A DNA stretch of 64,000 bases from Eledone cirrhosa (taxonomy: Eukaryota), in the NCBI GenBank assembly GCA_964016885.1, contig CAXHJY010000971.1, forward strand, positions 1-64,000. The letters are read 5' to 3'. Made by a program: the position numbers and the translations under genes. Positions 35,507 through 38,843 of the stretch are shown here, piece by piece; the stretch's first letter is position 1, and each line of letters opens with the position of its first letter. The notes beneath the pieces were generated by a model, which did no database searches, was not told the DNA's origin, and saw only the letters and a list, made by a program, of their open reading frames with translations.

Positions 35507-37177
35507 TTAAAGTTCTTGAGTGAATGGTTCTGGAGAAGGAGCGTCTTTGTTCGACTGCATCATTTTTTTGAATTTACCCCATCTTGATGTACATTTTGGT
35601 GTACTGGTGTTTTCTTTGTCGGAGTCACTTTCGTCGATTCTGAGTGTGTCCCCGCTTCTATCAGGAGAAGGAGTCTCGCATCTGTTTGGTCGCTTTCTTT
35701 GTTGCTCGTCTTTAAGTTTGTCGTACTCTTCTGTAATTTGACATATATTGTCGTCGGTTATGTCTGTGTCGTAATCGAGTATATCATGGAAGCAATGTTC
35801 ATAAAACAAATGGTACCAAATAGTTGGATTTAATTTTTTTTTCACAAGTTTTAGAAAAGGTGATGCGGCAATGAAATTGAATTCATTGTAACGCGTAATG
35901 AAAGCAATTTTTTCCTCTATAGGAGCATTTTTATCGAATTTATTATTCGAAGTTATTATTAATGGTGTCCTGTGTACTATTTGGTCTTGACGGAATTTAA
36001 CTGATACCTCAGTATCCGTCCCTTCCGCCAATTTCTTAAAAGTTTGTAGAGTTTCAAGAGAGAAGTTAGGTTCTTCTATGAGACCTAGCTCCACATTTAT
36101 TAAATTCTGGAAAGGGAAGCTGCTCGTTCCTTGAATGGTACTGACGTGCGTAAACATGTTAGATATACTACGCGCGATCATTGATTTGCCTGTGTTAGGC
36201 AGGCCGGTGAATACAAGCAAGTTTGTTTTGGCTTTGTATTTATTAAGCAAATCCCAAATACATTTTACAAGTTCTTCTTCGTCTATGTCTTGTGTCATAA
36301 TTATTGATCTAAATATTTTCAACGAAGTTTCGGTATCCATCCATAATTTGGTGTTTTCAAATTGTTTCCAATTCATATTCTCGAACTTCTCTTTGAATGG
36401 CATTATCAGTGTTTTCAGTTTCACGCATTCGAGTACTTTCTTCATGACGCTGTCGTACATGGGATGACTGATAGCGCGCATGAAATTTTCGTTGTTTGCT
36501 CGGTTAAGCCAGTGTGTTTTCATCTCCTGTTCGTTTCGAAATTTTTTTGATGTGAATATATACGTCAGGTAGTTGAATAGAGTTAAAGTCGTACCACTTC
36601 TGCTTTTGAATGTCGGTTCGTCCGTGGCATGTCTTGTTGATGTACTCGTTTTAGGTGTTGGGCTACATTTAGGTACGTATTCTTTCGAGCACCATTCTGC
36701 AAATTCAGAGTTTATAGAACCGAGGCCTTTTATCAGTAAATATCTCGGTGGTTGGCAGAAGTAATTGGCCATGCTGCTAGGGAACTTTACTCTTTGACAC
36801 TCTGGTATGTATCGCGCTAACTGTGTTCCCTTTTTGTACAAGCTTCTCACGTATTTGAGACGTTGGTTTTCTCCTGGTCTTATCTCTGAATTCCATATGA
36901 TATGGAAGTGGTTGAACGCATTCCATTCCTTTTTGTCGCATATTTTTGATTCTTTTGGATGGTAAATTACTGTTGCCTTGTTGATTTGAATAAATTCTAT
37001 TATTTTTCTGTTTGCATTAATTAGAAAGTTATTCTTGTATGCCCCTTCTTTTTCGTCGAAATCGTTTGTTGTTATTTCGTCGTGTTGTATCGGAACTCTA
37101 CCGTTGTCCCAACTGAAGTCCGTTTCAAGTATCCAAGGATAAATGCACATGTACATTTTTATTCCTCTTTTCTGCAA
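35507..37177 (-). CDS. NS1: Parvovirus NS1/Rep-like protein (HUH endonuclease + SF3 helicase); probably exon 2 starting at 37171
   Basis: HUH motif NHFHII, downstream Tyr in ANYFCQP, Walker A GLPNTGKS, Walker B LIEE, motif C IITSNN; the ORF opens on a TTGCAG acceptor rather than an ATG. Confidence 0.92.
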   Translation of the reverse strand: MQKRGIKMYMCIYPWILETDFSWDNGRVPIQHDEITTNDFDEKEGAYKNNFLINANRKIIEFIQINKATVIYHPKESKICDKKEWNAFNHFHIIWNSEIRPGENQRLKYVRSLYKKGTQLARYIPECQRVKFPSSMANYFCQPPRYLLIKGLGSINSEFAEWCSKEYVPKCSPTPKTSTSTRHATDEPTFKSRSGTTLTLFNYLTYIFTSKKFRNEQEMKTHWLNRANNENFMRAISHPMYDSVMKKVLECVKLKTLIMPFKEKFENMNWKQFENTKLWMDTETSLKIFRSIIMTQDIDEEELVKCIWDLLNKYKAKTNLLVFTGLPNTGKSMIARSISNMFTHVSTIQGTSSFPFQNLINVELGLIEEPNFSLETLQTFKKLAEGTDTEVSVKFRQDQIVHRTPLIITSNNKFDKNAPIEEKIAFITRYNEFNFIAASPFLKLVKKKLNPTIWYHLFYEHCFHDILDYDTDITDDNICQITEEYDKLKDEQQRKRPNRCETPSPDRSGDTLRIDESDSDKENTSTPKCTSRWGKFKKMMQSNKDAPSPEPFTQEL

Positions 37178-37210
37178 ATATAAAATGGATAGATTTGTTG
37201 TAATATTACT

Positions 37211-38779
37211 TTAACGATGAGCTTGTCGGGTTTTACCGACTCTCGTTATTTCATAATTACGTAAACCTTGCGGCCATTTACATAGATTTGTTTTGGCTGA
37301 ATTTTGTATTGTTGCATTGTCTTTTCCCCATGCCATCCAACCCATGGTTTGTGGACTACCAGAAATATATTCGAAATCTATTTCAGAATGATAAGTTATT
37401 GTGATCATGAATGATATTTTAGCCGGATTGTTTTGAGAATCTAGAATAGGTACAGAATCTAAAGTAGCTATTGGCGGTGGATTAGATGGATTTATTGGAA
37501 ACTGTGTTAAATGTGATCTGCCAGTGTTTTGTTCTTCATTTGATTTATCTACCGCCATTGATTTACTCCATGCCCCTTTTTCCGTTGGTGCCCATGCACT
37601 TTTTTTAGCCCCCGAATAAGTATTTATTTCGCATGGTAACCCGTTAGTTAGTTTTATTGTTGGTGGTTCGTATGTAGAATTAAATGCATAATAGTTCATC
37701 ATATTGAACCAACTTGGAGTTCTATTTACCCATGTATATCCTGCTGTGTCCCCAGCGTAAACGAATTGAAATTGACCAGTGTTTAAATAAGACAATATTT
37801 CTTCTGCTGGTATTTCTTGTTCTGTAGGTTTCGCTGCCTTAGTATCTTGCCATAACCACCAATCTTTTCTAATTAATCTATTTGTAATGCATTGATTTAG
37901 TTTCCCTTCTTCCCTTGTTAATGGTACGTTATGTGTCCAATTATTGTTTAAATGTCCTATTAAGTATGTTTGATTAGGAAATAAACAGTATTTATTATCG
38001 ACGTAATGTATCATCCATGGTCTTGTATTGAATGTTGTGTTAGTTGTAGTTGTATTTTGTAATGTTCCTAATTCGTCTGTTAAAGGAATTATATTTGATA
38101 TTTGATACCCACATGATTTAACTCTGAAATTATTGCAAGGTGTTAAATATGTTTCTAATTCTGCTATTGTCATACTAGCTTTTAATTCTGTATATGGTAT
38201 GTATGATGCTCTGTGTTTTATTTTTAATTCTATGTATTCATCATCATGTGTTTTGTATATTGCTTTATCTGTAGGATTATCCGAACAGTTTATGTAGTGT
38301 ATGAAAGTTCTTGAAAATTTTTTTGAAACGATTGGATTTTTATCGCCTATGTCTGGTGGTTGATCTCCACTTGCCATTGCTGCTGAGCCTCCAGGAGCTG
38401 GACCTACATGTGGATCACCCATGTCTACTGTTTGACTATTAATTCCGCTGTCTTGTGATACAAAGTCTTCGTCTGATGCGTCGCAAAGGTCTTCTTGATT
38501 TTTCTTAGATTGTTCTTCTTCTACTCTTCTTTTTTTGTTCGCCGGTGGCATAACCCAATTCTTAGCTTTGATTGTGTTTGCTACTACGAACGCCGCTACT
38601 CCGCCTATATTTTCAGAACACTGTATTAATCTATTATCTGCTTCTGCTATATCTACCTCTGTTTTACCGTATTCTATGTCGTGTATTTGACAGCATTTAT
38701 CTAATTCGTTAACAGGTTGTTTTTGTAAATTGTTTGTGTATGGACCACAATAATTATAACCTGGTAAATGTAAAGGCAT
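37211..38779 (-). CDS. VP1: Parvovirus-like capsid protein VP1 with N-terminal phospholipase A2 (522 aa); possible VP2 from Met at 38422
   Basis: LPGYNYCGP calcium loop, NELD..CQIHDIEY catalytic HDxxY, basic NLS-like KKRR, Gly/Ala-rich segment GPAPGGSAAMASG. Confidence 0.88.
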   Translation of the reverse strand: MPLHLPGYNYCGPYTNNLQKQPVNELDKCCQIHDIEYGKTEVDIAEADNRLIQCSENIGGVAAFVVANTIKAKNWVMPPANKKRRVEEEQSKKNQEDLCDASDEDFVSQDSGINSQTVDMGDPHVGPAPGGSAAMASGDQPPDIGDKNPIVSKKFSRTFIHYINCSDNPTDKAIYKTHDDEYIELKIKHRASYIPYTELKASMTIAELETYLTPCNNFRVKSCGYQISNIIPLTDELGTLQNTTTTNTTFNTRPWMIHYVDNKYCLFPNQTYLIGHLNNNWTHNVPLTREEGKLNQCITNRLIRKDWWLWQDTKAAKPTEQEIPAEEILSYLNTGQFQFVYAGDTAGYTWVNRTPSWFNMMNYYAFNSTYEPPTIKLTNGLPCEINTYSGAKKSAWAPTEKGAWSKSMAVDKSNEEQNTGRSHLTQFPINPSNPPPIATLDSVPILDSQNNPAKISFMITITYHSEIDFEYISGSPQTMGWMAWGKDNATIQNSAKTNLCKWPQGLRNYEITRVGKTRQAHR

Positions 38780-38789
38780 TCTGACTTAC

Positions 38790-38843
38790 CGCCAAAGAAG
38801 TAATCATATCTCGATCTCTCGTCTTTAAATCTTCGTAATTCAT
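38790..38843 (-). CDS. Predicted 18-codon leader exon of NS1 (MNYEDLKTRDRDMITSLA)
   Basis: tcaacATG at 38843; ends on a codon boundary at GCG|GTAAGT (donor 38789); joins in phase 0 to TTTGCAG|AAA at 37171 in the NS1 frame. Confidence 0.7.

Follow-up and report, generated by a model that had tools for sequence, protein, structure and literature searches.

A parvovirus-like element in the Eledone cirrhosa genome with its capsid gene placed in an intron of NS1

According to the available part of a 2024 review (PMC11357303), the left-hand side carries NS in every parvovirus. The family is defined by the NS1 domains, the hairpins and the two gene cassettes, and no capsid-first form is given in the ICTV profile (PMC6537627) nor, under the same family definition, in the available part of a 2026 paper (PMC13426907). 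Here we describe a parvovirus-like element found in a 64,000-nt stretch of the Eledone cirrhosa genome (assembly GCA_964016885.1, contig CAXHJY010000971.1, positions 1 to 64,000; hereafter the window, numbered on its forward strand), in which the gene order on the minus strand is leader, capsid (VP), NS1. The order of NS 5' of VP, a rule in the available part of PMC11357303 and not a criterion in PMC6537627, is reversed both in the window and in the contigs L041-L043 discussed below. Nor do NS and VP lie on opposite strands, as in the ambisense Densovirinae, both genes being on the minus strand. Since the order is not NS-first, the element is placed in no described genus.

Capsid RNAs of B19V skip the NS1 open reading frame (ORF). 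The available parts of the sources describe a single, alternatively processed pre-mRNA for B19V (PMC7064759) and large introns leading to VP for mouse kidney parvovirus (PMC6631224). These viruses and the other chapparvoviruses resemble the element in their large introns or single pre-mRNA, but they place NS first and reach VP by splicing, hence present its mirror image. Splicing in ambisense densoviruses removes the whole upstream NS3 ORF for NS1, with the acceptor just before NS1 (PMC3820778, available part). In that case (GmDNV type, AdMADV), however, the removed ORF is a small non-structural one, NS1 has its own ATG past the acceptor and the opposite strand encodes VP, whereas in the element the removed ORF is the capsid gene and the leader supplies the first 18 codons of NS1. 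Swazi bat-associated megaparvovirus 1 has extra ORFs 5' of NS1, one with PLA2, and predicted splice donors (PMC13426907); yet there the two ORFs at the 3' side are listed as NS1 and VP1, in this order, the genome is about 6.4 kb long, and the available text describes no capsid in an intron. Unclassified parvo-like sequences from marine invertebrates are placed outside the known genera in the available parts of PMC5013282 and PMC11357303. The mollusc sequences of Francois et al. are of like kind and could belong to the same lineage, the comparison being one by description; the available text gives neither gene order nor splicing.

An earlier note on this DNA, made from the sequence alone, had considered the layout unfamiliar among classified Parvoviridae. 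This layout is not described in the available parts of PMC9896142, PMC5013282, PMC12297876, PMC11125579 and PMC8310200. A literature search by title and abstract found no capsid-first, capsid-in-intron layout; it covered mostly open papers, and an earlier description is possible. The parts and the splicing trick are known, and it is their mirror-image arrangement that appears to be new.

On the minus strand, an ATG at 38843 (context ATCAACATGA) opens the NS1 leader exon of 18 codons (54 nt; 38790..38843), which ends at the donor GCG/GTAAGT (38789; the slash marks the splice site), the sole GTRAGT on the minus strand of the element (39250-35290) and 10 nt ahead of the VP ATG (38779). The acceptor, ...TATATTTGCAG/AAA at 37172/37171, is situated 39 nt downstream of the VP stop, and with the donor it delimits a GT-AG intron of 1618 nt (37172..38789) that holds the whole capsid ORF. 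Both sites are in phase 0, and the 18 leader codons added to the 554 of the main exon give, by arithmetic, a spliced NS1 of 572 residues. When left unspliced, the leader reads on as an upstream ORF (uORF) of 29 codons (38754..38843) that overlaps the VP start. Most of this had been claimed in the earlier note, from the 18-codon leader and the donor to the pyrimidine-rich acceptor about 40 nt past the VP stop (exon start 37171), the phase-0 intron, the 572-residue product and the short uORF, and the coordinates held on rechecking. Its statement that NS1 lacks an ATG at the 5' boundary is accurate for the boundary itself and fails a little way inside, where in-frame ATGs lie 15 and 21 nt into exon 2 (37156 and 37150). 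Another candidate acceptor, closer to the donor at 38761, was discarded because it would leave an intron of only 29 nt and its CAG is missing from several diverged copies.

The NS1 main exon (35507..37171, minus strand; 554 codons without a stop) matches Pfam Parvo_NS1 (7e-16) and combines an HUH endonuclease (H88, H90, Y137) with an SF3 helicase (Walker A 323-330), as is typical of NS1 in Parvoviridae; H88, H90, Y137 and the Walker A residues G323/K329/S330 are invariant across 12 sequences. Its structure model, with a predicted local distance difference test (pLDDT) score of 75, has AAV2 Rep68 as best structural match (9bc5, E 2e-15), and Atlas NS1 clusters score 0.98. The capsid ORF of 522 codons (37211..38779, minus strand; stop 37213-37211) encodes an N-terminal PLA2-like domain (Pfam PF08398, 1e-13) and a jelly-roll-like body. 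The VP model is of low confidence (pLDDT 51); its best Foldseek matches are parvovirus capsids (best 1.5e-10), and Atlas capsid clusters (0.96) agree with a parvovirus capsid. A jelly-roll fold, often preceded by PLA2, characterizes capsids of the Parvoviridae, and both are found in VP, the fold as read from the pLDDT 51 model. The sole named relative, at 37% identity, is an Octopus vulgaris protein annotated as capsid, and from it a cephalopod host is likely. Five related capsid proteins (P0007, P0157-P0160) are annotated as host genes on one long O. vulgaris sequence, and the protein search turned up no named NS1 partner for the capsid proteins of that species.

The earlier note had suggested a search for reads spanning 38790/37171. 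Four of 18 listed public runs, none of them catalogued as RNA, were compared with the window, all as contigs, with reads counted from 80% likeness, and the exact junction was found in the contigs of two of them, X18 (depth 18.1) and X9 (8.0), which bear different study and organism codes. The joint skips exactly 1618 nt, and its plus-strand ends, CT..AC, correspond to GT..AG on the gene strand; among the 13 joints listed it is the sole one of GT-AG type and also the sole one common to two runs. X18 is probably an RNA run, because it is small compared with the three runs sharing its organism code (88 million letters against 1382-1428 million, about 16-fold) and because it has an excess of A>G and T>C changes. 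Over window positions 35400-39220, A>G or T>C changes stand at 168 places and C>T or G>A at 59, while the bias is opposite in the other three runs (Fisher p 5e-6 to 1e-14); summed over seven genomic copies, the counts are 1033 and 1191, respectively. We take the excess to resemble A-to-I editing. Its presence in both forms is as expected for editing of double-stranded RNA from both strands, and such RNA could come from the inverted integrated copies. The near-identical leader matches in genome G000 (seven of seven, among the best-scoring candidates) all continue into the intron, so that no DNA copy lacking it turned up.

Diverged copies in the host genome carry the same architecture. From 30 loci, 11 diverged rows were mapped at the 5' end and 14 at the acceptor, two being one locus in each case, which leaves 10 and 13 copies, respectively. 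The leader is 54 nt long in all 10, the donor GT is kept in eight, and the capsid start position follows 7 or 10 nt past the donor. Differences within the leader fall on codon positions 1/2/3 as 279/196/397 (55 pairs), with the third position changed most and the second least; its frame is without a stop in 11 of 11 sequences, and the other two frames are stopped in 11 and 4. In 12 of the 13 copies, a YAG acceptor keeps a constant spacing to the NS1 codons, and the thirteenth, L028, is rearranged, with its NS1 piece also preceded by CAG. Copies that span both genes again have VP followed by NS1. The earlier note had held that NS1 transcripts from an internal promoter in VP with use of ATG 37156, or splice sites not conserved in relatives, would speak against the intron. 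ATG 37156 is missing from eight of 12 diverged copies and was therefore rejected as the NS1 start, and the splice sites are kept in the diverged copies as well as in distant contigs. An AATAAA at 37163, considered as an internal poly(A) site for the VP RNA, was rejected, as it is present near that place in only one of 12 diverged copies.

A profile search gave 79 proteins at E <1e-30. Scans with alignments of close NS1 sequences matched nothing in viral or metagenome contigs; with the sister-clade alignment, three weak matches (27-30% over about 130-150 residues) were obtained in viral contigs and five, L041-L045, in metagenome contigs. In each of L041, L042 and L043, a Parvo_NS1 ORF comes after a long ORF of the same strand, with NS1 23-30% identical to that of the window and the first ORF 20-34% identical to the window capsid; in Pfam, the first ORFs of L041 and L042 match nothing and that of L043 gives a sub-threshold IHHNV capsid match. 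L042 (4693 nt, with palindromes at both ends) has a leader of 18 codons plus 2 nt, a donor GAG/GTAAGC with the capsid ATG 9 nt on, and a TTTCAG acceptor, both sites in phase 2; its NS1 ORF is without Met for the first 176 codons. L043 has the donor ACA/GTAAGT and a TTTCAG acceptor, again both in phase 2, a frame that resembles the L042 leader (the leader peptides of the two are alike), and an NS1 without Met for the first 109 codons. In L041 (4071 nt), a 59-codon ORF meets the donor ACG/GTAAGT in phase 1, and the first AG past the capsid stop is also in phase 1. Homologous elements with matching donor, acceptor and leader phase, as the earlier note had sought, are thus at hand in L042 and L043, with a phase-1 match in L041. 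AAV2 Rep68 and B19V NS1 share the HUH and SF3 fold with the window NS1 at 13-18% identity, but in 13 of 13 AAV-like control contigs (labelled from size and layout) the NS match lay in the first long ORF. A helicase tree of 33 rows (quick method without bootstrap, rooted on four AAV-like contigs, references being AAV-like contigs and unnamed proteins) puts the four capsid-first sequences in one well-supported group (96) with the ambisense pair L044 and L045 and unlabelled proteins. Both members of that pair are about 6 kb, with NS1 and capsid-like ORFs on opposite strands pointing outward, and the capsid-like ORF matches the group capsid profile (probability 91.7).

Based on the junction contigs, the conservation in diverged copies and the phase-matched distant relatives, the earlier proposal of a capsid gene nested in the NS1 intron is substantiated, and the splice together with the coding role of the leader is strongly supported. 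The intron has the properties of a canonical spliceosomal GT-AG intron in its sites, its conservation and its junction contigs, the RNA nature of the runs being inferred. The whole is very probably explained by a parvovirus-like virus with leader-capsid-NS1 order, an NS1 made by splicing and an intron-retaining capsid RNA. A candidate promoter, TATAAA at 38927..38932 (minus strand), lies 89 nt upstream of the leader ATG; a TATA box is found 85-101 nt upstream of the leader in nine of 11 sequences, the window included (TATAAA at -85 to -97 in eight, TATATA in one, none in two). A candidate poly(A) signal, AATAAA at 35419..35424 (minus strand), lies 83 nt past the NS1 stop; of five diverged copies tried, four have an AATAAA downstream of that stop and one was unmapped. 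From the left promoter, one pre-mRNA with one poly(A) site would be produced. Splicing of 38790 to 37171 would drop the capsid gene and join the leader, with its start codon, to the NS1 body, and the intron-retaining RNA would serve as capsid message. On the latter, the leader would act as a uORF, and therefore VP would be reached by leaky scanning or by restart after the uORF.

Restart may favour a shorter VP over the PLA2-bearing form. A second in-frame Met at residue 77 (38549..38551, minus strand) is the candidate start of a 446-residue capsid, an MPP-type start is present at that residue in nine of 11 copies, and the annotated O. vulgaris protein P0157 begins at the equivalent Met. In all 11 copies the uORF terminates 26 nt beyond the VP start position. 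The capsids of L041-L043 are without a PLA2 match, and in these contigs the uORF stops within or just past the donor, 5-45 nt before the capsid ATG. These stop positions fit restart once the uORF has been read, with the short capsid as the main product in the window group and the PLA2 form as a minor one. The ratio of splicing to retention would then set the ratio of Rep to capsid, perhaps over time in infection.

Several observations weigh against this explanation. Public records list neither junction run as RNA, the shorter side of the joint measures 29 nt, below the 30-nt caution line of the tool, and the contigs carry no information on strand, start, end or level. X7 yields only an unspliced contig (3570 nt, spanning both genes) that could represent DNA or intron-retaining RNA, and X1 is without a listed joint; a contig of X1 starts at 38790 and carries a further 32 letters that are unmatched, which hints weakly at the junction. 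L043 is cut at its 5' end so that the leader start is out of view. L041 has a weak pyrimidine tract and an ATG 3 nt past the acceptor, and because of the latter it is the weakest of the distant cases. For the capsid-first order of the four sequences, the helicase tree gives two changes; one common origin is compatible with it, not demonstrated. Against clean restart, 10 of 11 copies have further ATGs, mostly out of frame, downstream of the first capsid start, and the position of the uORF stop may merely follow from the capsid's own codons. Lastly, several database relatives of NS1 are called from a Met at the position equivalent to 37150.

This Met is central to an alternative that we regard as unlikely, in which most NS1 is expressed from a separate promoter within the VP 3' end, with ATG 37150 as start and the splice as a minor event. 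The codon is retained in 12 of 12 diverged copies, and gene callers begin P0001, P0167, P0176 and P0190 at the strand that holds it. The Met sits, however, in the first predicted nuclease strand (residues 5-12), and its conservation could be explained by this place alone; L042 and L043 have no Met at the equivalent site, the ATG context has T at -3, no TATAA occurs within 900 nt upstream (the nearest is at 38093), and the conservation of the leader is of the coding type. Initiation at ATG 37150 is possible as an extra route to NS1 beside splicing. The leader peptide itself has no match among 165 fetched proteins, and no database protein confirms the spliced N-terminus.

Origin of the junction contigs from an intron-less DNA copy, processed or deleted, rather than from live splicing is very improbable: the run kinds are not on record and the genome search scored best candidates only, but the intron is retained in all seven near-identical leader matches noted above, and spliced RNA would in any case have been needed to produce a processed copy whose GT-AG ends are exact. 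We give equally little credence to the view that integration itself created the capsid-first order, through excision of a VP-NS segment from concatemeric DNA of an NS-VP genome of the ordinary kind. Host copies are indeed rearranged and inverted; yet the gap between VP and NS1 is just 39 nt and without a hairpin, the hairpins lie outside both genes, and the order recurs in diverged copies spanning both genes and in three free-standing contigs, one with palindromes at both ends. In the window, as in L041 and L043, VP and NS1 are in one frame, in the window with one TAA between them, which would allow a VP-NS1 fusion by read-through of a single stop. Across diverged copies the distance from VP stop to acceptor varies (33, 34, 38 or 39 nt), therefore conserved read-through is ruled out, and VP and NS1 no longer have a common frame in L042 and in 10 of 12 diverged copies. 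As a conserved route the fusion is largely refuted by these copies, and we consider it scarcely credible.

With leader-capsid-NS1 order and a splice-made NS1 retained as the preferred explanation, the layout is probably a lineage-wide architecture, shared by parvo-like viruses that form a deep group outside the current classification. We lean towards a deep, subfamily-level and unrecognised parvovirus-like branch, at least some members of which would infect marine invertebrates, with the capsid in a Rep intron, a leader of dual role (the N-terminus of NS1 after splicing, and otherwise a uORF that tunes translation of the capsid) and one splice decision running the Rep-versus-capsid programme. 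Such an order breaks the family-wide NS-first rule. It implies that a single intron can exchange and rewire the two parvovirus cassettes, a point of relevance to the shuffling of Rep and capsid modules in single-stranded DNA viruses, and it explains the NS1 proteins of the group that are called in databases without a true start. The exact junction is now available for lookup in public RNA data.

The window element is best explained as an integrated, recent-looking copy of a parvovirus-like virus, a reading that we hold, jointly with the leader-capsid-NS1 order and the splice-made NS1, with high confidence. It extends from about 39231 to 35290 (3.95 kb from 39231 to the right-hairpin centre), at the low edge of the 4-6 kb range of Parvoviridae. 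Likeness to other copies stops at 39231, the outer edge of an imperfect left terminal hairpin (39155..39231, minus strand; fold of 39100-39245, z -2.9). Next to it is a 16-nt inner terminal motif of the (CCCT)n type (39138..39153, minus strand), inverted relative to its right-end copy at 35312-35327 and a candidate NS1-binding site. The latter copy is held in the right terminal hairpin (35219..35362), a perfect palindrome centred near 35290 (z -23) that is partly the product of an inverted duplication: a partial second copy, the NS1 3' end (34579..35219, plus strand), lies tail to tail across it, with 641-nt arms that are 100% complementary, as a hairpin replication intermediate might leave behind. 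Hairpins bracket the coding region, as is characteristic of Parvoviridae, a family with linear single-stranded DNA in T=1 virions and rolling-hairpin replication; the sequences compared here are integrated copies and assembled contigs. Between poly(A) signal and right hairpin, the gene strand has 29 consecutive T (35370-35398), and diverged copies have A- or T-rich tracts at the matching place.

The 3.0-Gb host genome holds 70 matches to the element. Near-identical but rearranged copies are on host contigs C10, C14 and C5, and many further copies are about 65-80% alike, most of those tested carrying stops or frame breaks. Near-identical copies on four contigs and older ones about 70% alike point to a parvovirus-like lineage with many entries into the animal's germ line. 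Pieces of the element also form tandem arrays in the host (L023, L030), with units of about 80 nt from the capsid gene and 108 nt from the NS1 end. Host DNA is duplicated around the element: inverted arms 99% alike (31827-32505 and 40877-41558) enclose it, and a 300-nt microsatellite block occurs at 99% on both its sides (33837-34136 and 39279-39578). Elsewhere in the window, an open frame of 1259 codons and two more copies of it at about 95% likeness (2403-6182, 7970-10689 and 13436-16050) are presumably of long interspersed nuclear element (LINE) retrotransposon type, and minus-strand open frames of 309-409 codons at 44628-45557 and 61733-63999 seem to resemble retroelement pieces. Among the distant contigs, the end of L045 recurs at the start of L044. 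The NS1 ORF of L042 ends at 3837, and acidic, tail-like frames carry on in other frames over 3726-4308, a break that may be a second intron or an assembly error. The called N-termini of P0021 and P0174 align with the acceptor region of L043, which suggests, on the alignment, that this protein cluster uses the same splice as L043.

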